The notes: a model not told the origin generated them from the letters alone. A stretch of 64,000 bases of DNA from an uncultured Solirubrobacterales bacterium (GCA_963746615.1 CAVVBU010000017.1:27404-91403); one strand, 5' to 3'; shown: positions 2,513 through 30,511, numbered from the stretch's first letter. Translations and numbers: made by a program.

Positions 2513-3520
2513 GTGGACGAGCGAAGCGTGCTGCACGTATTGCCCCATAGCGGCGCCGGCGGCGAGGAGTACGTCGAGCTGCTGGAGGGGATGGAGGGCT
2601 TTCGCTTCGAGCGGATGGCGCTGAGCGAGCGCCGCAACCCGGCGCTGGCGGCCGCCCGCCTCCCCGCCGTGTGGCGCCGCGCCCGGAAGAACGATTTGGT
2701 TCACGTTCACGGAGACGCCGCCGCGATCCTCTGCCTGCCGGCGACGCGGACCCGCCCGGCCCTGATCACCCTGCACGGGTTGCACCTGGTGGCTCGCGCC
2801 CGAGGCGCGAGCCGTCGGTTTCTGGCTGCGGGCCTGCGCGCCGCGGTGCGCCGGGCGCGCGCGACGATCTGCGTCTCGGAGTCTGAGCTGCGGCTGGCAC
2901 GGGAGGCGCTCGGCGATCTCCCGGGGCTGGAGTTGATCCGAAACGGGGTCCGCCTGCCGCCGGCGGTGGATGAGGCCGAGCGCCGGGAGGCGCGGGCCCG
3001 CTTCGGCCTCGGCGAAGGCGAGTTCGCGGTCGCCTTCGCCGGGAGCCTCGACGAGCGCAAGGACCCGCTCACCCTGGCCCGAGCCGTGCGCTTGAAGACC
3101 GGGCTGAGGGCGCTGCTCGCGGGGAACGGTCCCCTGCGCGTGCAGGTCGAGGCCGAGGGCGGTGCGGTGCGCGTCCTCGGCCCGTGCGGCGACCTGCGGC
3201 CGCTGTTCGCGGCCGCCGACGCCTTCTGCCTGCCTTCTCGTCGCGAGGGCCTCTCGCTGGCGCTGCTCGAGGCGATGGCGGCGGGACTGCCCCCGGTGGT
3301 CTCCGACGGTCCCGGCAACCCCGAGGCAGTGGCGGCGGCGGGTCTCGTCTTCCCCTGCGGCGACGCCCGCGCCCTGGCGGACGCGCTCGAGCTGCTGGCG
3401 GGGGATCCGGAGCGGGCGAAGGAGATCGGCGCGGCGGCGCGTCAGCGGGTCGCCTCCGAGTTCAGCGCGGAGCGAATGGTGCGCGAGACGCGGGAGGTCT
3501 ACCTCCGCGCGCTCGGCTGA
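2513..3520 (+). CDS. glycosyltransferase family 4
   Basis: C-terminal half has PSRREGLSLALLEAMAAGLPPVVSD (GT4 E-x7-E region). Start trimmed to the in-frame GTG at 2513 (VDERSVLHVLPHSGAGG), divergent from the oxidoreductase gene. Confidence 0.75.
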   Translation: MDERSVLHVLPHSGAGGEEYVELLEGMEGFRFERMALSERRNPALAAARLPAVWRRARKNDLVHVHGDAAAILCLPATRTRPALITLHGLHLVARARGASRRFLAAGLRAAVRRARATICVSESELRLAREALGDLPGLELIRNGVRLPPAVDEAERREARARFGLGEGEFAVAFAGSLDERKDPLTLARAVRLKTGLRALLAGNGPLRVQVEAEGGAVRVLGPCGDLRPLFAAADAFCLPSRREGLSLALLEAMAAGLPPVVSDGPGNPEAVAAAGLVFPCGDARALADALELLAGDPERAKEIGAAARQRVASEFSAERMVRETREVYLRALG

Positions 3521-6788: not shown

Positions 6789-7535
6789 TCAGGCTGTCCG
6801 CCGCGAGACGAAGATCAGATCGCCCGCCCGCAGTCCGAGCCGCTGGCGCTCTGCCTCGGACGCCGGCGCCCGCTCGGCCGAGACCTCGAAGCCCGCCTCG
6901 ACCAGGCGCGCCTCGAAGTCACGGCCGTAGAGCCTGAGGTGGTCGTCCTGCCCGAAGCGCCGTTCCCTCTCCGCCGGGTCGGTCAGCTCGGGGGCTTCGT
7001 CGGTTCTCTCGCGCGAGGGGTCCAGCGGCACCATCACGATCACTTCTCCACCCGGGCGCAGCAGGCGCAGCAGCTCCTTCATCGCACGGCGATCGTCGGA
7101 GACGTGCTCGAGGACGTGGCTGCAGATGATCCCGTCGAAGGACGCGCCGGGAAGGCCGGTATCGCAGATGTCCAGCGTCAGGTCAGCACCAGCCTCGAGG
7201 TCGGCGGTCAGGTACTGCTCGAAACCGAGCTCGCGGAGGTTGCGAGTGAGCGCCCCCTCGGGGGCGAAGTGCAGCACGCGCTCCGGCCGCGAGCCGCCGC
7301 CCCAGCGCTCGCGCAGCAGCAGCCATAGGGCGCGGTGGCGCTCGAGCGATCCGCAGGCCGGGCAGAGCGCGCCCCGCCGGCCGTTGAACTCGACGAAGCG
7401 GCGCAGGTGGGCGCCACAGCAGGGACACTCGACGCCCTCACCCCGGAGGGCGAGGGCGAGGGCGCGGCGACGCACCCGTCCCGCGCCGCGGCGAACCCGC
7501 GACGGATGTGAGCGGAGGCGCCGAGTCAAGGTCAT
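6789..7535 (-). CDS. class I SAM-dependent methyltransferase with N-terminal Cys4 zinc-ribbon
   Basis: From ATG at 7535: MTLTRRL..CPCCGAHLRRF..CPACGSLERH, followed by VLHFAPE ... SFDGIICSHVLEHV ... LRPGGEVIV (methyltransferase motifs I-III). Confidence 0.8.
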   Translation of the reverse strand: MTLTRRLRSHPSRVRRGAGRVRRRALALALRGEGVECPCCGAHLRRFVEFNGRRGALCPACGSLERHRALWLLLRERWGGGSRPERVLHFAPEGALTRNLRELGFEQYLTADLEAGADLTLDICDTGLPGASFDGIICSHVLEHVSDDRRAMKELLRLLRPGGEVIVMVPLDPSRERTDEAPELTDPAERERRFGQDDHLRLYGRDFEARLVEAGFEVSAERAPASEAERQRLGLRAGDLIFVSRRTA

Positions 7536-21767: not shown

Positions 21768-21788
21768 GCCGCCAACACAAGGCGGAAG

Positions 21789-21861
21789 TGGAGCTAGCCG
21801 GACTCGAACCGGCGACCTCCTGGGTGCGATCCAGGCGCTCTTCCAACTGAGCTATAGCCCC
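21789..21861 (-). tRNA. tRNA-Ala (anticodon CGC)
   Basis: Reverse complement GGGGCTATAGCTCAGTTGGAAGAGCGCCTGGATCGCACCCAGGAGGTCGCCGGTTCGAGTCCGGCTAGCTCCA folds as a cloverleaf. Anticodon loop AT-CGC-AC, G3:U70 alanine identity pair, canonical TTCGAGT T-loop. No encoded CCA. Confidence 0.9.
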
Positions 21862-24919: not shown

Positions 24920-24992
24920 GGGGCCATAGCTCAGCTGGAAGAGCGTCCGGTTTGCATCCGGGAGGTCGCGGGTTCGAGTCCCGCTGGCTCCA
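24920..24992 (+). tRNA. tRNA-Ala (anticodon UGC)
   Basis: GGGGCCATAGCTCAGCTGGAAGAGCGTCCGGTTTGCATCCGGGAGGTCGCGGGTTCGAGTCCCGCTGGCTCCA. Anticodon loop TT-TGC-AT, G3:U70, canonical D and T loops. Confidence 0.9.
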
Positions 24993-25041
24993 CTGCTTGG
25001 TTGTTTGCTCGCTAAGGAGCGGGTAGCGGAACTTGCTGCGC

Positions 25042-25075
25042 TTACTCGCGCAGCTCGGCGGCTTCGAGGGGTCCG
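25042..25075 (-). other. orphan copy of the 3' tail of a SnoaL-like gene (...LEAAELRE*)
   Basis: Plus strand TTACTCGCGCAGCTCGGCGGCTTCGAGGGGTCCG aligns with the true 3' end of the 26723..27121 gene (CTACTCCGACAGCCCGGCGGCTTCGAGGGCGTCCG). It lies 15 nt downstream of the corrected stop of the ABM-like gene. Confidence 0.6.
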
Positions 25076-25090
25076 ATTCGGGATCTGGGG

Positions 25091-25362
25091 CTAGGCGTCG
25101 TACTGGCCGCCGAGCTCCGCCGCCTGGGGCTTACCTTTGTGCCCGGCTTCTTGCATGATCGGTGGGACATCGGGGTCGGAGAGAAAGCTTTGAAAGCCCT
25201 CCTGATCCCAGTCGAAGACCACCCAGACCCGGCCGTCCTCATTGGGATCGCGAAAGACGGTCGAACCCTGGACCCGTGCTGCTTTCGCTTCTCAGCGCCC
25301 TTGGTTGAGAAGATTTCCAAGAAGCGGTCGAAATCCTCGACCTGCGTCGTCAGCAGAATCAA
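25091..25362 (-). pseudogene. small ABM/Dabb-like (ferredoxin-fold) protein, frameshifted
   Basis: TTG start at 25362 with AAGGAG 7 nt upstream. MILLTTQVEDFDRFLEIFSTKGAEKRKQHGS then shifts frame at about 25262-25270 and continues STVFRDPNEDGRVWVVFDWDQEGFQSFLSDPDVPPIMQEAGHKGKPQAAELGGQYDA* (stop at 25091-25093). The family assignment is tentative. Confidence 0.6.
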
Positions 25363-25404
25363 CTCTCTTCTCCTTTGGGGGAAGTGTCATCGCGTGCTCC
25401 TGCG

Positions 25405-25510
25405 ATATCGCCCACGCAGTATCTCGCACCCGGCCGCGTCCGCCAGCGCCACGGCTCCCACCCTTCCGCAGATAACCCGGAGGGGCTCCCGTTGCCCGTC
25501 ATCGAGATTG
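25405..25510 (-). repeat. intergenic element copy A (related to 26580..26710 and 27122..27234)
   Basis: Minus-strand reading: CAATCTCGAT..CCCTCCGGGTTATCTGCGGAAGGGTGGGAG..CCGTGGCGCTGGCGG..GCGAGATACTGCGTGGGCG-ATATCGCAGGAG. It shares blocks, in the same order, with copies B and C. Confidence 0.7.
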
Positions 25511-25573
25511 CACTCACGACCCGATAGGAGGAGCAAATGAACGACGAGCGCTTCTCGTCCAAAGCGGATCGAG

Positions 25574-26004
25574 TTAGTCAGCCCACCAGTCGCGCTGGCC
25601 CTCGACGTCTGCGCGGACCGTCAGCGAGATTGGGCGCGCCGAGACGCTGATCTCGAGACCCCGCGGTCCGCCGCGTAGCCTCGACACGTACCGGGCGGGA
25701 CGCGCACCATGTCCCACTCCTTGAGCTCGACGATCTCGTCGTCGAGCTTGCCGATCCGCCCGCTCCCGCGCACGACCACGTACACCTCCTCCTGCTTCTT
25801 GTGCGTGTGGCCGTACGGAAAGCGATAGCCGGGCGGGACGCGCTGGTAGCTCACGCCGGATTGCTCGAGTTCGAGCGCCTTGGTCGCCATGCGGAACTCC
25901 AGATCCGGCGCGCCGTCGAACCTGGACCCGACGTCCTCCAGGTCCTCCTTGAGGTTCCTGAGTGTGAACGGCACGGCCGCAATCCTACGGTGCCCGCTTT
26001 CCAT
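25574..26004 (-). pseudogene. cupin domain protein, C-terminal frameshift
   Basis: PFTLRNLKEDLEDVGSRFDGAPDLEFRMATKALELEQSGVSYQRVPPGYRFPYGHTHKKQEEVYVVVRGSG... is a cupin core (G-H-x-H). After ..VRVPPGT.RGYAA, a 1-nt shift near 25660-25672 restores a high-GC3 frame, GPRGLEISVSARPISLTVRADVEGQRDWWAD*, ending at 25574. The start is ATG at 26004 or GTG at 25974. Confidence 0.65.
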
Positions 26005-26094
26005 GCAAAGCGGTAGTGCCCCCGCCTTCCAGCCCAAGAACCCTCTGCCGACAAACGTCACGCTGGAGACGCTAGGGTTGCGGCCTAGCTGGAC
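26005..26094 (-). repeat. degenerate copy D of the intergenic element (upstream of cupin gene)
   Basis: Minus strand GTTTGTCGGCAGAGGGTTCTTGGG aligns with GTTTGTCTGCGGAAGGGTGGGAGG of copies A and B. The rest has diverged. Confidence 0.35.
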
Positions 26095-26129
26095 CTACTC
26101 CGAACGACCGGCTTCGAGGGCTTCGCGCC
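26095..26129 (-). other. orphan copy of the 3' tail of a SnoaL-like gene (...AFLSWREALEAGRSE*)
   Basis: Plus strand CTACTCCGAACGACCGGCTTCGAGGGCTTCGCGCC aligns with the real 3' end at 26723..26757. The encoded tail parallels AWFHQPADALEAAGLSE*. It lies downstream of the stop (26183) of the unrelated NTF2-like gene, in a different frame. Confidence 0.6.
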
Positions 26130-26182
26130 AGGAGAGGAAGGCAATCGCAGTCAAGGCTGGCGCAGAGAAACGGCGGGAGCAG

Positions 26183-26554
26183 TTATCGCAACCGCCAAAC
26201 CGCGTTCACGATCCTCCAGCCTTCGGGCATACGGATCAGCTGCAGCAGGTCGACGAAGAGATGGCAAAGGCACGTTACGCTCGCGATGTCGCCGCTGAGG
26301 TACTCGATCTTTATTTCGATCCGCCGGTCGGCGGCGTCCTCGCGTTGGCCTTCGCCGTCTGCGGTGGCGTCGATCATCTCAGCGGCTGAGAGAGTCTCCA
26401 GGGCGTCCGGGTCATCACCCTCAATCCCGCGGCAGCGCTTCACGAGTTCCGGGTGCAGCGCCCGTTCCATGCGCCCCGCATCCCCGTCGAACCAACCCTC
26501 GATGTAGTCGCTCACTCCTGCCCGGATCGCATCCTCATCAGCGCCAATGGTCAT
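26183..26554 (-). CDS. NTF2-like (lumazine-binding/SnoaL_3-type) small protein
   Basis: ATG at 26554 preceded by GGAGCGGAGGA. MTIGADEDAIRAGVSDYIEGWFDGDAGRMERALHPELVKR ... MPEGWRIVNAVWRLR. Confidence 0.7.
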   Translation of the reverse strand: MTIGADEDAIRAGVSDYIEGWFDGDAGRMERALHPELVKRCRGIEGDDPDALETLSAAEMIDATADGEGQREDAADRRIEIKIEYLSGDIASVTCLCHLFVDLLQLIRMPEGWRIVNAVWRLR

Positions 26555-26579
26555 CGTTCGTCCTCCGCTCCCTCATAGG

Positions 26580-26710
26580 CATGGCCCGCGCAGTCTCTCA
26601 CTCTGGTCCGCGGGCCGCTAGCGCCACGGCTTCCGGGAGCCCTGGTGCCACGCCTCCCACCCTTCCGCAGACAAACCGGAGGGCCTGGCGCTGCCGCTGA
26701 TCGAGGTTCC
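26580..26710 (-). repeat. intergenic element copy B
   Basis: Minus strand: GGAACCTCGATCAGCGGCAGCGCCAGGCCCTCCGGTTTGTCTGCGGAAGGGTGGGAGG...GCCGTGGCGCTAGCGGCCCGCGG...GAGAGACTGCGCGGGCC-ATG. It begins 12 nt after the stop of the upstream SnoaL-like gene. Confidence 0.7.
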
Positions 26711-26722
26711 GGCGTGACCGCC

Positions 26723-27121
26723 CTACTCCGACAGCCCGGCGGCTTCGAGGGCGTCCGCCGGTTGATGAAACCAGGCGTAGCGCACAACCTTGCCGTCGCG
26801 GACAGTCCACAAGGCCGATTCCCGACCCTCTACTTCGACGCCGCTCCCGCGACCGCGGGCCCGGTACCGCACCACCACGGCTACCTGATCATCCACAGCC
26901 TTGAACTGTTCCGGCTCCATTTGCCAGGTCTCCCATCCTTCGAAGACCTTTTCAACCGCACGGCTGAACGCAGCGAGGCCGCGTCGGGTTCCCGGCTCCA
27001 CGGCGTGGATGGGATTGACGTACTCGATCTCCGGGTCCACGAGCTCGAGGGGTCCAGGGAGGTCGTTGCGCGCCCACGCCCGATAGAAGCTCCGCACGAT
27101 CTCCACGTTCTCCTCCGACAT
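26723..27121 (-). CDS. SnoaL-like / NTF2 family protein (ketosteroid-isomerase-like)
   Basis: From ATG at 27121: MSEENVEIVRSFYRAWARNDLPGPLELVDPEIEYVNP ... RDGKVVRYAWFHQPADALEAAGLSE*. The N- and C-terminal signatures are typical of this family. A GATACT -10-like box ends 9 nt upstream of the ATG, so the transcript may be leaderless. Confidence 0.8.
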   Translation of the reverse strand: MSEENVEIVRSFYRAWARNDLPGPLELVDPEIEYVNPIHAVEPGTRRGLAAFSRAVEKVFEGWETWQMEPEQFKAVDDQVAVVVRYRARGRGSGVEVEGRESALWTVRDGKVVRYAWFHQPADALEAAGLSE

Positions 27122-27234
27122 CGCCCGCGCAGTATCGCGCTCAGCCCCCAGGGCCGCCACTGCCACGGCCGCCACGTGTTTGGCACCTTTCGCTCAGGTC
27201 TCCTGGCGCTGCCGCCCTTGACCGTCGAGGTTCC
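27122..27234 (-). repeat. intergenic element copy C (directly abuts the SnoaL-like ATG)
   Basis: Minus strand: GGAACCTCGACGGTCAAGGGCGGCAGCGCCAGGAGACCTGAGCGAAAGGTGCC..GCCGTGGCAGTGGCGGCC..GAGCGCGATACTGCGCGGGCG-ATG. Confidence 0.7.
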
Positions 27235-27257
27235 TTCTTATTCTTAAGGAGGTGGCC

Positions 27258-27503
27258 ATCGTCCGCTCGCGGCGGTTCCCGGGCTGGACCTTGCCCTTGG
27301 CGGGGGGCACCCTGGTCGTCCTCGTGGCGACCCTCTGGTACACGAGTGCGCTTTGGCACCGCAGACAACTGACGACCTGCCATCCCTCTGACTCGAAGGC
27401 GGCGGGCGCGGGCGGGATGTGCGGCATGTGCGAGCTCCTCCTGCGCCGCTGGCTCGTTCTCCAGCGCCACTCGACCCCTAACACTTGTGCTCCTCGAGGC
27501 TAG
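27258..27503 (+). CDS. possible small membrane protein with non-canonical ATC at the expected start position
   Basis: AAGGAGG (27246-27252), then 5 nt, then ATC at 27258. The frame encodes (I)VRSRRFPGWT-LPLAGGTLVVLVATLWYTSALW-HRRQ..CGMCELLLRRW.., with one clean TM helix. GC3 cannot discriminate it from the in-phase antisense ORF 27194..27484. An in-frame GTG at 27252 overlaps the SD. Confidence 0.3.
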   Translation: MVRSRRFPGWTLPLAGGTLVVLVATLWYTSALWHRRQLTTCHPSDSKAAGAGGMCGMCELLLRRWLVLQRHSTPNTCAPRG

Positions 27504-28339
27504 GTCTTGCAGTAGGCGAAACCCGTGAGCGTTGAATCTACGCCGTCGGCGAGGGCCGAGGTCTTCCATCCGCGGCTTCCCACGCGCCTGGAGCTGAGAC
27601 GACAATGCCCCGGCGTCGACCCCCATCGTCTGCTCGACGTGACCGTCGAATCCCCCCGCCACCGCCTTCCGCCCTCGCGGGCACCTCGGCGTGGTCGACC
27701 CGGTCTCGCCGGAGCTGATGTCCGCATCCTTCGACCTCGTCGTCAACCCGGGCCCGTGCTTGTCGCAGTAGGCGGACGCCTCCAGCGTGCCCGGGTCCGC
27801 GCCCGCGTTGAAGCCTGAGGCCTTCCAGGACTGCGTTTGCTCGACCCGCTTCGATGCGAAGGTGACGACCGCGGCCCCGGCCTTGTCGAACTCCGGTGTG
27901 GTGAAGCCGCCCGACACCGCCTCGCTTCCGGACGGGCACCTCGCGGTCACCGAGTCGAGCACGTCGGGACCGATGACCTTCGCCTTCGAGGCGACCTTCA
28001 GGCCCGGCTGGTTCGTGTCGCAGTAGGCGAACGACGTCAGCGTCCCCCGCTCCACCGCCGGAATTGCGTGCCGACACCTGCCAGGTCCGCCCCCTTTTCG
28101 CTTCGAGCTGAAGGTGGAGATCGCCGGCCCGGGACCGGTGGGATCGAAGCCGGGTTCGCGAAGCCGCCCGACACCGCCTCGCTCCCCCTCGCGCAGCGGG
28201 CGGCCACCGAGCCGTTCGTCTGCTGGGGGACGCTAGTGCTCTTCGACGCGGTGACGACCGTCGCGCCAGCCACCCCCGCCGCTACGAGGCAGGTGACGGC
28301 GAAGGCCGTGGCGACCCCGCCCCACGTGAACCCGCACAT
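27500..28339 (-). pseudogene. secreted Cys-containing protein with three ~85-aa internal repeats; multiple frame changes
   Basis: ATG at 28339 with AAGGAG 6 nt upstream; signal/TM MCGFTWGGVATAFAVTCLVAAGVAGATVVTA. Repeat signature: RC-x-x-GSEAVSGGF ... (F/L)(S/A)S(K/R)R ... W ... (F/S)AYC(D/K). Following this signature requires frame changes near 28150-28154, 28090, 28044-28048 and 27594-27607. The protein ends ...TLTGFAYCKT* at 27500. Confidence 0.55.
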
Positions 28340-28718
28340 CTGGTGCTCCTTGTTCTGCACGCCGCCTCGGGGGATCGTGCCCCTCCGCACCTTACACGCG
28401 ATCGGACGGTATGAGCGCGTGCGAAAGCTGGCGCAGCTGGTGACCTACGTGTCTTTTTGGCGACGAAGGGGATGACCCGGAACCGCTTGCAGGAGTCGTG
28501 GCACTCGGAATGCCTCAGCTCCGCGTTCGTTCGAGCAGGTTCCGGAGCTCGAGCTGAGATTGGGGGTTTGACAGTCGTCCCGCTAACTCCATCGCATGCT
28601 TGCTCCATCGAGTGGTCGAGCAGCAACGGCCGCGCACGGCGGCTCGTCGCGCCTGGGTGGAAGCCGACCGTTCATGGAGACCCTTGACCACGCGCCACGG
28701 GGCGCCTTTTCTCAGTTG

Positions 28719-28737
28719 GTCAAACGCGGGGTTTGAC
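28719..28737. promoter_or_regulatory. perfect inverted repeat GTCAAAC-N5-GTTTGAC just upstream of a TAGGGT -10-like box
   Basis: GTCAAAC gcggg GTTTGAC lies at 28719-28737. TAGGGT (28740-28745) is followed 6 nt later by the codon that aligns with the N-terminus of the SHOCT gene. This geometry fits an operator plus a leaderless promoter. Confidence 0.3.
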
Positions 28738-28751
28738 GATAGGGTCACGCC

Positions 28752-29235
28752 ATCGGACTCTTCAAGAGCAAGCGCAAGAAGGCTGAGGATCTGTTTCAAA
28801 CCGGCGCCAAGGGCGCCGGGACCGTGATTCAGGTGCAGGACACCGGGACGACGATCAACGACAACCCTCGGGTGAAGATGGTCTTTCGCATCGAGCCGCT
28901 GGACGGCGGGGAGGCCTTCGACGTGCAGAAGACCACCACGGTCTCGCGGGTCGAGATCCCGCGCCAGGGCGACCGCTATCCGGTCTGGTACGACCCGCAG
29001 GACCCCACGGGGACCTGGGCCTACGCCACGATCGCTGACGATGAGGGGCGCAACACGATGCGCCAGCTCTTCGGGGACGTAGCCGAGACCTTCGTCGGCA
29101 TGGGGGCTCCCGCCGCTCCCGCTCCGCAGGGCCAGGACAACGTCGCAGCAGATCAAGCAGCTCGCCGATCTGCACGCTCAGGGCATCATCACCGACGAGG
29201 AATTCGCGGACCAAAAGGCGAAGCTGCTCGGCTGA
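28752..29235 (+). pseudogene. SHOCT domain protein; start position reads ATC and the C-terminal SHOCT domain is out of frame
   Basis: The in-frame N-terminus is (I)GLFKSKRKKAEDLFQTGAKGAGTVIQVQDTGTTINDNPRVKMVF.., with no ATG, GTG or TTG before 28824. After ..APAPQGQDNV, a shift near 29135-29145 gives QQIKQLADLHAQGIITDEEFADQKAKLLG* (SHOCT signature). Confidence 0.6.
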
Positions 29236-29370
29236 ACCGCAACACCCATCAGGGCCGCATCGGGGGCGCGGCCTCTGCTCCATCGAGGGTTTCAGACGAC
29301 ACCTGGGCGTTTGAGCAATCTAGGATTACGTCATTGCCGACTCCCTTTGGATTCGCGAAGAGGCGCTGAT

Positions 29371-29793
29371 TTGACGCTCGGCGAAGGAGAAAAGGACCAA
29401 CTCGTTGGCGGCGAGCTGCTCGCCGCGATCTCCACCACGATCGTCTCGATCCTGCGCGAGCACTACGGTCGCGGGCCGATGAAGGCGAAGACCTACGTGC
29501 TCGACGACCTCGTGGTCTGCGTGCTGCGGAACGGCTTCATCGCCATCGAGGAGACGATGATGCAGCAGGGGCGCGAGAAGGAAGTCGTCGAGATGCGGCA
29601 CGAGTTCCAACGGATGATGGGTGAGCGCTACCAGCAGGAGATCGAGAGGCTGACCGGCCGCAAGGTCGTGGCCTTTCTCAGCCAGGCGCACGTCCAGCCG
29701 GACATCACCCTCGAGGTCTTCTTCATGGACGAGCCGCTGCCGGGATTCGGCGCGCTCGAGCTTGAGCCGGAGGCTGAAGAGGAAACCGACTGA
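29371..29793 (+). CDS. DUF2294 (MpsC-like) family protein
   Basis: ISTTIVSILREHYGRGPMKAKTYVLDDLVVCVLRNGF..IEETM ... RKVVAFLSQAHVQPDITLEVFFMDE is the typical DUF2294 pattern. The TTG start at 29371 is tentative. Confidence 0.75.
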   Translation: MTLGEGEKDQLVGGELLAAISTTIVSILREHYGRGPMKAKTYVLDDLVVCVLRNGFIAIEETMMQQGREKEVVEMRHEFQRMMGERYQQEIERLTGRKVVAFLSQAHVQPDITLEVFFMDEPLPGFGALELEPEAEEETD

Positions 29794-29895
29794 AAAGGGC
29801 CGGACTTTGGGTGGAATCCGCTCTTGTGTCGAGAACGGGTTGGCGGGAGAATCCAGCGACAAGGCATCGCCACCGACCCACGAGCAGGAGGAAGC

Positions 29896-30165
29896 ATGCA
29901 TTTCCTCGCGACTCAGGTCGAGCGGATGCTTTCGGATCGTCGTCCCTTCGATGAGATCGAGGATCGCATCGAGGGAATGTCGGTTTCGGATGACAAGAAG
30001 GCGGCCCTGTGGCTACTCGCGTGGAGCGGGCAGGCCGAGTGGGTTCGGCGCCGGACTGTCGCTGAAGTTCTGACCTCCACAGCAACACGGATTCCGGCTG
30101 GCCCTGATCTCGCTCGACCTGCTGAGCGCCATCGGGCACGGCAGCCTCACGCGAGCTCGATGTGA
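29896..30165 (+). CDS. hypothetical small protein
   Basis: ATG at 29896 preceded by GAGCAGGAGGAAGC. MHFLATQVERMLSDRRPFDEIEDRIEGMSVSDDKKAALWLLAWSGQAEW.. The C-terminal third looks low quality. No family recognised. Confidence 0.35.
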   Translation: MHFLATQVERMLSDRRPFDEIEDRIEGMSVSDDKKAALWLLAWSGQAEWVRRRTVAEVLTSTATRIPAGPDLARPAERHRARQPHASSM

Positions 30166-30195
30166 TCGCCGGCTGAGCCTCACAACCAATGCCCC

Positions 30196-30360
30196 TCAGC
30201 GGGTGTGGAATACGTGGCCGCAGTGCTCGCAGACCTCGGATTTCAGAGGGGTCCGGTCGCCGCAGCGGGGGCACTTCTTGTTGCGGCTTGGTACCCAGAG
30301 GAGGCGCCCCACCAGAAAGGCCACCACCACAACAAGCGCGACGATGATCGCGATCGTCAT
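30196..30360 (-). CDS. small membrane-anchored zinc-ribbon protein (54 aa; below ORF-track cutoff)
   Basis: Minus-strand ATG at 30360: MTIAIIVALVVVVAFLVGRLLWVPSRNKKCPRCGDRTPLKSEVCEHCGHVFHTR*. It has one TM helix followed by a CxxC...CxxC knuckle pair. GAGGCGAGG lies upstream. Confidence 0.45.
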   Translation of the reverse strand: MTIAIIVALVVVVAFLVGRLLWVPSRNKKCPRCGDRTPLKSEVCEHCGHVFHTR

Positions 30361-30511
30361 CGGAACCTCGCCTCGGCCGGTTTCACACCGAGCACGGAAC
30401 GCACGATAGCGGCGCGGGTCGGACGAACCGCCCGCGGCGGGCAGGTGCCACGAGACCAGGCGGGAATGTCACAGTTGCGTCAATGGTCGGCCTTCCACAC
30501 CGTCTGACCGC

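Follow-up and report, generated by a model that had tools for sequence, protein, structure and literature searches.

A tRNA-adjacent array of small genes in an uncultured Solirubrobacterales bacterium, a probable member of a lineage-wide family of SnoaL_2 cassette arrays

Replacement of cassettes through homologous recombination at conserved flanks takes place in the "minimal mobile elements" of Neisseria and in the orphan toxin/immunity modules of CDI/Rhs systems, the latter keeping a stretch of 5' homology. In Bacteroidales, the rAID-1 arrays of small immunity genes reportedly carry a tyrosine recombinase at their head. Small folds of the SnoaL/NTF2 and cupin kinds, and of the ABM kind that is tentatively assigned here, are also found in integron cassettes. 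A 2016 survey found no complete integrons in Actinobacteria, and clusters of attC sites lacking an integrase are termed CALIN (Cury et al. 2016, PMC4889954). Putative mobile promoters are highly similar upstream regions that precede non-homologous genes, within and between genomes, with no recognisable transposable element (Nijveen, Matus-Garcia and van Passel 2012, PMC3575422).

Here we describe an array of four small genes in an uncultured Solirubrobacterales bacterium. The window is the whole stretch of 64,000 nucleotides that was analysed. An initial annotation placed four small genes on the minus strand beside a tRNA gene, and proposed that unrelated genes had entered the interior of a conserved SnoaL-like gene shell by cassette exchange. 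All four genes were located, together with the tRNA gene:

27121-26723, minus strand: intact SnoaL_2 family gene (Pfam E 6e-18), with the canonical start ATGTCGGAGGAGAACGTGGAG and its tail at 26752-26723
26554-26183, minus strand: NTF2-like gene, Lumazine_bd_2 (Pfam PF12893, E 1.1e-17)
25974-25574, minus strand: Cupin_2 gene, disrupted (Pfam E 1.9e-7), with TAGGAT, 7 nt, then GTG
25362-25091, minus strand: ABM-like gene with a TTG start and the Shine-Dalgarno sequence AAGGAG (ORFs 25042-25362 and 25091-25222)
24920-24993, plus strand: tRNA-Ala(UGC) (ARAGORN; Rfam tRNA, 67.6 bits)

The SnoaL-like, NTF2-like and cupin labels agree with the Pfam assignments to SnoaL_2, Lumazine_bd_2 (a family that we take to be NTF2-like) and Cupin_2. 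Only the gene at 27121-26723 belongs to the SnoaL_2 (PF12680) family, having the domain together with the MS[EQ]ENVE start and the EALEAAGLSE tail in the profile searches; by Pfam, the NTF2-like, cupin and ABM-like genes are not members. This gene has 4813 homologues, the top one at 93% identity, and many 132-aa proteins are 80-93% identical to its product; at the nucleotide level it is 86% identical to its orthologues in loci L001-L005. A homologue of the NTF2-like gene with 57% identity adjoins an array in another locus (L024). The cupin gene likely starts with the GTG at 25974 and not at 26004 as first annotated, and three small deletions (1, 1 and 2 nt) disrupt the frame when it is compared with a homologue in L017 at 94% nucleotide identity. 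The ABM-like gene has a 1-nt deletion relative to an intact homologue in L063. It had no match in Pfam, NCBIfam or PADLOC, and PADLOC matched none of the four genes. The PDB gave weak matches only (E 0.3-0.6), seven of nine being ABM-type or haem-degrading monooxygenases, and the ABM identity of the product is tentative.

The initial annotation had also reported related elements upstream of three genes, a degenerate fourth copy before the cupin gene, decayed copies of the family start in two of the elements and two orphan copies of the SnoaL-like gene's tail. These features lie on the minus strand as follows:

27234-27122, minus strand: element copy C (5' module and GCGCGATACTGCGCGGGCG), running directly into the real start codon
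26708-26583, minus strand: element copy B, which contains an internal duplication of 24 nt and has GAGACT as its hexamer
26582-26555, minus strand: decayed family start of copy B, ATG CCT ATG AGG GAG CGG AGG ACG AAC G
26121-26095, minus strand: orphan tail (..EALEAGRSE*) downstream of the NTF2-like gene (tail profile; repeat families D9 and D12)
26094-25994, minus strand: degenerate copy D of the element, a long variant without the canonical 3' block, preceding the cupin gene
25510-25409, minus strand: element copy A, made up of the 5' module and the invariant GCGAGATACTGCGTGGGCG block
25408-25393, minus strand: decayed family start of copy A, ATA TCG CAG GAG CAC G
25075-25043, minus strand: orphan tail (..LEAAELRE*) following the ABM-like gene, with 85% identity to the real tail

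All of these features are real and have statistical support, the two decayed starts included. A self-BLAST of the window aligned copies A and B over 62 nt (82%, E 1.6e-10), A and C over 70 nt (76%, E 6e-8) and B and C over 51 nt (76%, E 6e-5). A profile search with nhmmer recovered copy C at 27225-27095 (model positions 4-131, E 5e-26), copy A at 25510-25385 (positions 2-128, E 2e-22) and copy B at 26708-26577, divided by its 24-nt duplication into 26708-26643 (positions 3-68, E 1e-12) and 26642-26577 (positions 45-110, E 6e-7); the profile was built from copies in other genomes plus the three window copies, so that these E-values are not independent. The profile found no further copy in the 64-kb window and misses copy D, which is instead supported by local alignment of 26121-25994 with a long-variant element (L018_900), which scored 38, whereas 100 shuffles reached no more than 25. 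The decayed starts were read from the sequence. That of copy A aligns with the canonical ATGTCGCAGGAGAACG; in copy B, the ATG at 26582 is followed by CGGAGGACGAACG and then by a new ATG at 26554, and a GGAGGA 6 nt before the new ATG resembles a Shine-Dalgarno site. A tail profile built from other genomes only, ranked over both window strands, placed the real SnoaL_2 tail first (26752-26723, E 2.4e-11) and the orphan tails second (25070-25043, E 1.3e-4) and third (26121-26095, E 0.021).

The element belongs to a family of ~130-nt intergenic sequences that occurs in dozens of metagenome-assembled genomes (MAGs) of Solirubrobacterales and other Actinomycetota, and it is widespread in uncultured soil Solirubrobacterales. 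An exact-pattern scan returned 86 stretches with about 58 true copies, nearly all from MAGs of these groups, and a profile scan revealed arrays with a period of ~515 nt that contain as many as 8 copies or more. Recurrence beyond the window had been named as a check, and both element and tail were found in dozens of genomes. The comparison loci were 8 kb each and their source MAGs are incomplete. MAGs with MFD names may be long-read assemblies, in which case assembly errors could account for some frameshifts and, in principle, for some of the array orders. Usually, the element and a ~400-nt SnoaL_2 gene are repeated as a unit, often beside tRNA genes. The unit consists of a variable 5' intergenic module of ~80 nt, an almost invariant block of ~45 nt (GCGnGATACT, the 9 nt GCGYGGGCG, and ATG TCG SAG GAG AAC GTG), a gene of ~130 codons and a conserved 30-nt tail (GCC CTC GAA GCC GCC GGG CTG TCG GAG TAG). 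The typical cargo is a SnoaL_2 protein of 129-136 aa whose ends are MS[EQ]ENVE and EALEAAGLSE and whose interior is diverse. When the cargo was tested strictly at 115 sites, an intact family gene with its tail was found at 36, a family start followed by a broken ORF or no recognised tail at 43, no canonical ATG at 17, and foreign cargo or a cut by the locus end at the remaining 19. Copies of the element are near-identical between species while the genes diverge, and copies of only the 5' or only the 3' half occur. In relatives, SnoaL_2 paralogues that share this start and tail lie in plain tandem, 3 nt from one another. A large part of the "shell" is simply coding sequence for the conserved N and C termini of this very large family of paralogues. 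The shell has two parts, namely the conserved coding ends of the family and the almost invariant GCGnGATACT-GCGYGGGCG-ATG block.

The elements are often close to tRNA genes. The 347 kb of element-bearing loci contain 14 tRNA genes, half of which (7) lie within 650 nt of an element, and in two loci (L019 and L073) 5'-truncated elements begin 0-8 nt past the tRNA 3' end. In the window, 49 nt separate tRNA-Ala(UGC) from the last orphan tail, in line with the distance of about 50 nt first noted. The backbone of Peptidase_S11, a variable slot, tRNA-Ala(UGC) and GDH is kept in relatives, with the tRNA-GDH pairing retained in L092-L095. Comparison of this position across relatives, proposed as a check on the exchange reading, shows that the slot cargo varies: it is a Lactamase_B gene with an unknown gene in L092, one SnoaL gene in L094, and a cupin gene with a GerE-type gene in L095. 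The tRNA is a conserved anchor, and the variable slot opens at its 3' end.

Cassette arrangements differ between related MAGs. Cassette K is ~99% identical in three loci (L048, L049 and L064) from GCGnGATACT to the stop codon of the tail, and both the upstream 5' modules and the downstream sequences differ between them. Cassettes K and N are 98-99% identical in these loci but differ in order and neighbours, and the homology of N breaks elsewhere in the junction unit than that of K. Array orders in these loci are K-N-R-W, N-D-K and N-R'-K. Near-identical cassettes thus occur with different element types, neighbours and order, and their homology stops within the conserved start block, the tail or the element. 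Breakpoints fall at no fewer than four positions of the junction unit, and the junctions of foreign cargo are scattered from the ATG to +25. The chimeric unit of the window is itself shared. Element A, the start remnant, the ABM-like gene and the orphan tail are collinear with L063, with the same junctions and the same tail after the gene, and a more distant locus (L015) has the same chimeric layout; by tblastn, the ABM-like protein is 84% identical to its homologue in L063 and 59% in L015. Because it is collinear in two other genomes, this unit is an inherited cassette and not a product of local decay. Recurrence, reordering and the shared chimera junctions mean that cassette exchange between conserved flanks, as initially proposed, describes the behaviour of the family well; integron-like machinery is not supported.

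The invariant block may act as a promoter whose transcript is leaderless or nearly so. Among copies outside the full retrieval pattern, GATACT is present in 54 of 65, and the spacing to an ATG or GTG is exactly 9 nt in 55 of 65. As expected of a leaderless-type actinobacterial start, a -10-like hexamer (nAnnnT) stands at a fixed short distance with no Shine-Dalgarno site, and the intervening GCGYGGGCG lacks GGAGG. In the 3-nt-spaced arrays (L001-L005, L070 and L040), the 3' block stands once, on the first gene of the operon, and only ~20 nt upstream of the ATG are retained. The block heads unrelated genes, namely SnoaL_2 (copy C), Lumazine_bd_2 (B) and the ABM-like gene (A) in the window, and elsewhere a glutaredoxin-like gene (L161), a membrane protein gene (L120), a GNAT gene (L194) and a FAD oxidoreductase gene (L019). 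A simple sigma-70 consensus scan found no promoter in the array region, and a plain promoter leaves the near-invariance of the 9-nt spacer, of GGCAG and of GTGGAAGCCGTGGCGC across species unexplained.

On balance, we favour the view that the four genes form a small array, decayed in part, that belongs to a SnoaL_2 array family spread across Solirubrobacterales and related Actinomycetota and contains three foreign-gene cassettes (NTF2-like, cupin and ABM-like) and one intact family gene, and that the promoter/leaderless-start module and the conserved gene ends probably act as homology arms for RecA-type cassette shuffling. Since each genome contains many repeats of the block, of the tail and of parts of the 5' module, these could provide short arms of homology, between which RecA-type recombination or gene conversion would duplicate, delete, reorder and re-pair cassettes. 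Occasionally, an unrelated gene would replace the interior of a family gene and leave the start and tail remnants in place, after which the chimeric unit would behave as an ordinary cassette. Breakpoints at several positions are expected under homologous recombination, and we infer this process rather than a site-specific one. Two observations speak against the mechanism: the arms, at 30-45 nt, are near the lower limit for RecA-dependent exchange, and integrase-mediated islands are classically marked by just such a strong association with tRNA genes.

The plain tandem paralogues in relatives would fit another account, in which a paralogue array is eroding at the tRNA by ordinary duplication and decay and unrelated genes are present by chance, with no exchange. 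Two of the four window genes look disrupted, copy D is degenerate, copy B has its duplication and decayed start, and the window contains a single array. This account is unlikely. It does not accommodate cassettes at 98-99% identity behind other element types and in another order, or element copies that stay near-identical across species whose genes have diverged. The ABM-like chimera also retains its start and tail remnants although the proteins are only 59% identical, by which point non-functional remnants should have decayed. The claim that simple tandem duplication does not explain the locus is supported. The tRNA signature would suit an integron-like, site-specific cassette system of Actinomycetota, seeded at tRNA genes, whose site would be the invariant block or the tail/start repeat TGTCGGAG and whose recombinase would lie elsewhere in the genome. 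Small genes arrayed on one strand with a 130-nt spacer repeated between them, cassettes reordered between near-identical genomes, the enrichment beside tRNA genes with its truncated elements, the extreme conservation of the 45-nt block and a possible 7-nt inverted repeat around the ATG (TaCTGCG..CGCAGgA, read by eye) are consistent with it. If it were true, the tRNA-proximal SnoaL arrays of Solirubrobacterales would be a new integron-analogous cassette-capture system in Actinomycetota; unlike in integrons, its site would be double-stranded, would form no hairpin and would also supply the promoter and the start codon. However, Pfam searches of the ORFs at 27.1-33.3 kb and of those flanking the tRNA on either side detected no recombinase, and a scan for tyrosine-recombinase catalytic motifs was negative over the whole window and, among 48 related loci, gave matches in only 2, away from the arrays. 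Single-stranded DNA folding of copies A, B and C on both strands was no better than shuffled sequence (z -0.96 to +0.39), the elements contain no long inverted repeats, and the family consensus has no conserved GTTRRRY/RYYYAAC cores. The multiple breakpoints and the spread of foreign-cargo junctions also argue against a single site. A recombinase may be unlinked or distant, given 8-kb loci and incomplete MAGs; even so, we regard the integron-like system as quite unlikely, and it is similarly improbable that the block, with or without the tail, is the recognition site of an unrecognised, unlinked recombinase.

The position of the element directly 5' of the start codon could also suit a structured cis-regulatory RNA, either a riboswitch-like leader or an intercistronic processing element before each gene. 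Conserved blocks that look single-stranded alternate with segments varying in sequence and length, some of which resemble compensated hairpins by eye. Nevertheless, the minimum folding energies of 48 copies gave z ~0, both over the full element and within each of three sub-regions, RNAalifold returned no consensus structure, and Rfam 15 had no family at E <= 1. A would-be pairing position in the GCGnGATACTGCG palindrome varies without compensation, and the 3-nt-spaced arrays keep only the ~20 nt before the ATG. The element may contain a small local helix, and a structured RNA as its explanation is very doubtful. Many near-identical copies across genomes, the half-only copies and an 8-nt direct repeat (TGTCGGAG) at tail and start that can be read as a target-site duplication would fit a non-autonomous mobile element (MITE/REP-like) inserting between genes and bringing a stop codon, promoter and start codon; empty sites (..GGGCTGTCGGAGGAGAAC..) would then appear as fused two-domain genes in close relatives. 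This is highly improbable, because terminal inverted repeats are absent, the TGTCGGAG pair also occurs in the 3-nt-spaced arrays where the element is missing, and copies are restricted to the SnoaL-array context, with none elsewhere in the 64-kb window. A search of plasmid and phage collections gave no match to the element.

The shuffled SnoaL_2 arrays share features with several described systems. Like integrons and CALIN, they are arrays in which small genes of unrelated function lie on one strand with a repeated element of 60-140 nt between them. Cassette order varies between close relatives in both, here for cassettes K and N, and we infer the process behind it. The window array has no adjacent IntI, a tyrosine recombinase that a complete integron needs and that is absent from CALIN by definition. 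Its repeat has neither the single-stranded hairpin fold of attC sites, which are imperfect inverted repeats (R''-L''...L'-R'), nor their R''/R' cores. In contrast to the single shared Pc promoter of integrons, each unit has a promoter-like block. Unlike in integrons and CALIN, the cargo is mostly one paralogue family, the conserved flanks include coding sequence and the breakpoints are not at one site. The rAID-1 arrays are similar in their small genes and their conserved, promoter-bearing intergenic repeats (the promoter being putative here); they differ in that no tyrosine recombinase was found here, none of the four genes has a PADLOC match and nothing marks SnoaL_2 proteins as immunity proteins. 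The minimal mobile elements and the CDI/Rhs modules likewise hold variable genes between homology arms, with no dedicated recombinase and with fragments of the main gene beside orphan cargo. Their flanks are whole genes or exceed 100 bp, whereas those described here are tandem blocks of 30-45 nt, in another phylum and other gene families. As with putative mobile promoters, a similar upstream region, with predicted promoter activity, heads non-homologous genes (SnoaL_2, Lumazine_bd_2, ABM-like, glutaredoxin-like, GNAT and membrane-protein genes). The reused unit differs in carrying the start codon and the first ~7 codons, in having a conserved 3' tail as its partner and in forming tandem arrays whose members reshuffle.

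Four small minus-strand genes lie beside tRNA-Ala(UGC) in the window, whose G+C content is 70%, and three of them are preceded by copies (A, B and C) of an element of ~130 nt.

Features of the array and its surroundings; the element profile includes the window copies, so its E-values here are not independent
27225-27095, minus strand: element C, before the SnoaL_2 gene (profile E 5e-26)
27121-26723, minus strand: SnoaL_2 gene, intact (Pfam 6e-18)
26708-26577, minus strand: element B, profile match split by a 24-nt internal duplication
26554-26183, minus strand: Lumazine_bd_2 gene, NTF2-like (Pfam 1e-17)
about 25974-25574, minus strand: Cupin_2 gene (Pfam 1.9e-7)
25510-25385, minus strand: element A (profile E 2e-22)
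25362-25091, minus strand: ABM-like gene, 90 codons, 1-nt deletion (25255-25262) relative to the intact homologue in L063
24920-24993, plus strand: tRNA-Ala(UGC); the four array genes point toward its 3' end
24771-23428, minus strand: glutamate dehydrogenase (GDH) gene, divergent from tRNA-Ala(UGC)
21788-21861, minus strand: second tRNA-Ala (CGC), downstream of the GDH gene; the region beyond is a variable slot in relatives

The repeats described by the initial annotation (three elements, a degenerate fourth and orphan tails of the SnoaL_2 gene) are confirmed by self-BLAST, profiles and a shuffle-controlled alignment. Within the window, A and B align over 62 nt (82%, E 1.6e-10), A and C over 70 nt (76%, E 6e-8), and B and C over 51 nt (76%). 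The element profile, with 133 positions drawn from copies in other genomes and the three window copies, finds no copies besides A, B and C in the whole 64 kb. A 30-nt tail profile made from other genomes only places the real tail and the two orphan tails at ranks 1-3 in the window (E 2e-11, 1e-4 and 0.02). The degenerate copy D, before the cupin gene, is below detection by the element profile; the stretch 26121-25994, an orphan tail plus the variable upstream part of the element (5' module), aligns with a score of 38 to a long element variant in L018, one of the comparison loci (L-numbers) from other genomes, MAGs and metagenome contigs, and 100 shuffles gave a maximum score of 25. The E-values and profile ranks rule out chance likeness in GC-rich DNA. 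A match to the tail and element B at 3245-3326 lies inside an opposite-strand glycosyltransferase gene and was judged to be due to chance.

Defence-system and NCBIfam libraries yield no family for the four array proteins; the cupin protein has a far-sub-threshold NCBIfam match only, to RimP (16 bits vs a cut-off of 137). The best matches of the window proteins carry Solirubrobacterales MAG names, and exact-sequence look-ups of the SnoaL and NTF2-like proteins gave no match. The initial label "ABM-like" is plausible but not established: the protein belongs to no Pfam, NCBIfam or PADLOC family, and a PDB search returned weak matches, of which 7 of 9 are ABM-type or haem-degrading monooxygenases. 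Compared with a 94%-identical homologue in L017, the 3' part of the cupin gene has lost 1, 1 and 2 nt in three small deletions spanning about 70 nt (25574-25720). The indels in the cupin and ABM-like genes may mark true pseudogenes or be errors of long-read assembly. Frameshifts are also apparent in many family genes of MFD-named MAG loci; these MAGs may be long-read assemblies, and some of the frameshifts may therefore be errors.

Copies of both the element and the tail, for which a BLAST-type check had been proposed, recur in many related loci in pattern and profile scans. Of the 86 stretches that an exact-pattern scan of one genome per species picked up, about 58 are true copies. Almost all of these come from MAGs named as Solirubrobacterales, Actinomycetes or Actinomycetota, and one from a Chloroflexota MAG; the rest of the stretches are chance matches within Nocardia, Rhodococcus and enterobacterial genes. 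The element profile reveals many further copies on those loci, typically in arrays that repeat every ~515 nt, the combined length of one element and one ~400-nt gene. L018 has at least 8 copies; L048, L086, L024 and L023 have 5 each. The family consensus is the tail GCCCTCGAAGCCGCCGGGCTGTCGGAGTAG, a spacer of a few nt, the ~130-nt element and the start ATGTCGSAGGAGAACGTGGAG, with the element reading CGGTCACGCCGCGACCTCGATCACCGGCAGAGCGAGyCCCTCCCGTTTATCTGTGAATGGGTGGAAGCCGTGGCGCTG...GCGnGATACTGCGYGGGCG. Conservation is strongest at GGCAG, at GTGGAAGCCGTGGCGC and most of all in the final ~45 nt, and it remains odd that non-coding blocks are near-invariant across species. Plasmid and phage collections contain no similar DNA. 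A hairpin motif, CCGCTTTGGACGA(A/G)AAGCGG, lies 3' of the cupin gene at 25543-25559, where a terminator scan found an adjacent overlapping stem (25559-25543). The same motif recurs just 5' of elements in the L018, L023, L053 and L065 arrays, sometimes straight after the tail, and so looks like one more module of the junction unit that can be reused. Two metagenome contigs, L154 and L122, have in common a different upstream sequence (..GCCACTCTAATTCGCnCTGTC) joined to GATACTGCGCGGGCGATG, and the ORF from that ATG in L154 has an MntP-like N-terminus by eye. Either the 18-mer has a further carrier here or the match is due to chance.

The window SnoaL_2 gene has 4813 homologues, many of them exactly 132 aa long and 80-93% identical. 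In close relatives, the orthologue is found within tandem arrays of 3-4 paralogues with 3-nt spacing. Since all tandem paralogues start with ATG xCG SAG GAG AAC GTG GAG and end with ..GCC GCC GGG CTG TCG GAG TAG, the start and tail first noticed in the window are the two conserved coding ends, N- and C-terminal, of a large family of paralogues. The flanks of the shell proposed initially are a promoter-like start block and the gene ends of this family. In the 3-nt-spaced arrays, the tail GGAG is at Shine-Dalgarno distance from the following ATG, as read from the sequence, and the block GCGAGATACTGCGTGGGCG, almost identical to window copy A, precedes the first gene only. The 8-mer TGTCGGAG occurs family-wide in both the tail (CTGTCGGAGTAG) and the start (ATGTCGGAGGAG), in the window at 26726-26733 and 27113-27120, which places a short direct repeat around each family gene whose third codon is Glu; if the two copies recombined, ATGTCGGAGTAG would remain. 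Its interpretation as a target-site duplication was rejected because the 8-mer is also found where the element is absent.

The near-invariant end of the element, the 3' block, can be read as a start signal. Among 65 copies not matching the full retrieval pattern, GATACT is present in 54, and exactly 9 nt (GCGYGGGCG) lead to the ATG or GTG in 55. The block has no Shine-Dalgarno sequence and occurs once, at the head of 3-nt-spaced operons. Actinobacterial promoters have nAnnnT -10 boxes, and leaderless mRNAs are frequent. Given this background, the fixed GATACT spacing, the lack of a Shine-Dalgarno sequence and the operon-head position point most economically to a probable promoter whose transcripts would be leaderless or have a 2-3-nt leader. 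All three copies in the window retain the hexamer (GATACT, GAGACT, GATACT). Before the cupin gene the order is TAGGAT, 7 nt and GTG, an arrangement conserved in L017. A simple sigma-70 consensus scan gave no promoter match.

Shells with foreign genes inside are inherited as units. The window ABM-like unit consists of element A, ATATCGCAGGAGCACG..GACACTTCCC..AAGGAG, the gene itself and ..CCCGAATCGGACCCCTCGAAGCCGCCGAGCTGCGCGAGTAA. The L063 locus is collinear with all of this, start remnant and orphan tail included, and there both the reading frame and the ATG are preserved. The arrangement recurs in L015, where the ABM-like protein shares just 59% identity. In start remnant A, ATG has become ATA, and the ABM-like gene has its own AAGGAG-TTG; start remnant B places GGAGGA 6 nt upstream of the new ATG of the NTF2-like gene. 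A decayed family start would thus supply the ribosome-binding site of the foreign gene at copy B, the ABM-like gene having its own. The kept ATG of copy B (26555-26582) opens a 15-codon upstream ORF (MPMRERRTNDDHWR*) that overlaps the NTF2-like gene start by about 19 nt. Elsewhere the block also heads divergent or non-family cargo, such as SnoaL proteins with long N-terminal extensions (L023, L059) and an FAD-type oxidoreductase (L019). A metagenome search for block copies whose ATG precedes a base other than T yielded mostly family genes with other second codons. Its foreign cargo, retained only when embedded in arrays, comprises a glutaredoxin-like protein ending in-frame with ..AAGLSE (L161), a membrane protein (L120), a GNAT (L194) and an NTF2-like protein (L146); several further candidates were set aside as unrelated genes that encode DTARAM by chance. 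In L018 the long-variant elements contain the upstream fragment of the cupin gene, CTGCTTyGCATGGAAAGCGG, which shows the reverse event, a foreign cassette being lost.

The tRNA-proximal slot varies in content among relatives, as a comparison proposed at the outset now shows. The backbone Peptidase_S11 - slot - tRNA-Ala(UGC) - GDH - unknown gene - GGDEF - tRNA-Ala(CGC) - slot is conserved in L094 and L095. It also matches in L092, but that contig ends before the slot past tRNA-Ala(CGC) is visible; L093 is a short contig with the tRNA-Ala(UGC)-to-tRNA-Ala(CGC) part only.

Content of the two slots
tRNA-Ala(UGC) slot, window: four-cassette array
tRNA-Ala(UGC) slot, L092: Lactamase_B and an unknown gene
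tRNA-Ala(UGC) slot, L094: one SnoaL_2 gene
tRNA-Ala(UGC) slot, L095: cupin and GerE-type gene
Slot past tRNA-Ala(CGC), L095 (same contig as L053): four-gene element/SnoaL array
Slot past tRNA-Ala(CGC), L092 and L093: glyoxalase and SnoaL gene
At tRNA-Ala(CGC), window: no element copy

The L094 SnoaL_2 gene (GTG CCC AGC GAG AAC GTC..; 6840-6920, reverse strand) starts 2 nt beyond the 3' end of tRNA-Ala(UGC); it shares the strand of the tRNA and lacks an element, which suggests co-transcription with the tRNA, whose processing would yield a leaderless mRNA. Upstream of the window array, G+C falls to 61-67% at 27250-30500 vs 68-75% in the flanks. Most ORFs there have no Pfam family, the sole recognised one being an MpsC-domain ORF (29311-29793), and a minus-strand ORF at about 27500-28390 has repeated Cys-containing motifs (AYCD..RCP.G..AVSGGF). 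The array may belong to a larger variable island of ~5.5 kb.

Several identities of the element were considered and rejected. A and B have PSGLSAEGWE in common in one frame, with two synonymous differences; that frame differs from the ATG frame, and family-wide variation has no 3-periodicity, which excludes a coding sequence. Rejection of a structured RNA or attC-like hairpin rests on folding tests, RNAalifold and Rfam. MFE z-scores lie near 0, both for 18 complete elements and for three sub-regions in 48 copies; DNA folding of window copies A, B and C, on each strand, yields z between -0.96 and +0.39; RNAalifold detects no consensus structure, and a search of Rfam 15 gave nothing at E <= 1.

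The initial proposal, exchange of cassettes between conserved flanks, describes the family well. Copies of cassette K in L048, L049 and L064 share ~99% identity over a stretch that runs from GCGnGATACT to the tail TAG and includes the gene. Upstream, the 5' module in L048 is completely different; downstream lies a full element in L048 vs, at a distance of 3 nt, two different family genes in L049 and L064. Cassette N, a 176-aa SnoaL_2 variant starting MSQENEKTMN, is 97-98% identical in the same three loci, and its homology ends near GGTGG mid-element, just 5' of GATACT and just past ATGTCG. The order of individual cassettes is K-(partial)-N-R-W in L048, N-D-K in L049 and N-R'-K in L064. Breakpoints are confined to conserved blocks, yet at several positions, which fits short-repeat recombination or gene conversion rather than site-specific crossover; recombination or gene conversion between short conserved repeats would then shuffle the cassettes. 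A site-specific, integron-type mechanism, the less favoured alternative, finds its best argument in the tRNA association. The loci surveyed are only 8 kb long, and the search of the window's own genome covered the 64 kb. Across 48 element-bearing loci (347 kb) there are 14 tRNA genes, 7 of them within 650 nt of an element, and in L019 and L073 a 5'-truncated element starts 0-8 nt past the tRNA. If tRNA genes occur about once per 100 kb, our own rough estimate, they are enriched here, and the attraction of elements to tRNA genes remains odd. Against site-specific exchange stand the scattered breakpoints and a catalytic-motif scan that found tyrosine recombinases in just 2 of the 48 loci. No recombinase genes adjoin the window array, and the element has none of the GTTRRRY/RYYYAAC cores that are the hallmark of attC. 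The evidence favours homologous recombination over the integron-type mechanism.

In summary, the observation is confirmed and its interpretation partly supported. If the interpretation is true, abundant uncultured soil Actinomycetota hold tRNA-proximal pools of small NTF2-like, cupin and other genes (one tentatively ABM-like), shuffled and occasionally recruited via short conserved flanks that also provide a promoter and start codon. This would offer a concrete reason why the SnoaL_2 expansions of these genomes are so large and diverse, and make the ~130-nt element a searchable marker of variable-gene slots in MAGs. For annotators, orphan start and tail fragments by small genes in these genomes would be systematic and not random debris. 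The family would also be a natural test case of how far homologous recombination at 30-45-nt repeats mimics site-specific cassette systems. By the definitions of Cury et al. (2016, PMC4889954), the window array fits neither an integron nor a CALIN; it would represent cassette plasticity of the integron kind, without the integron.
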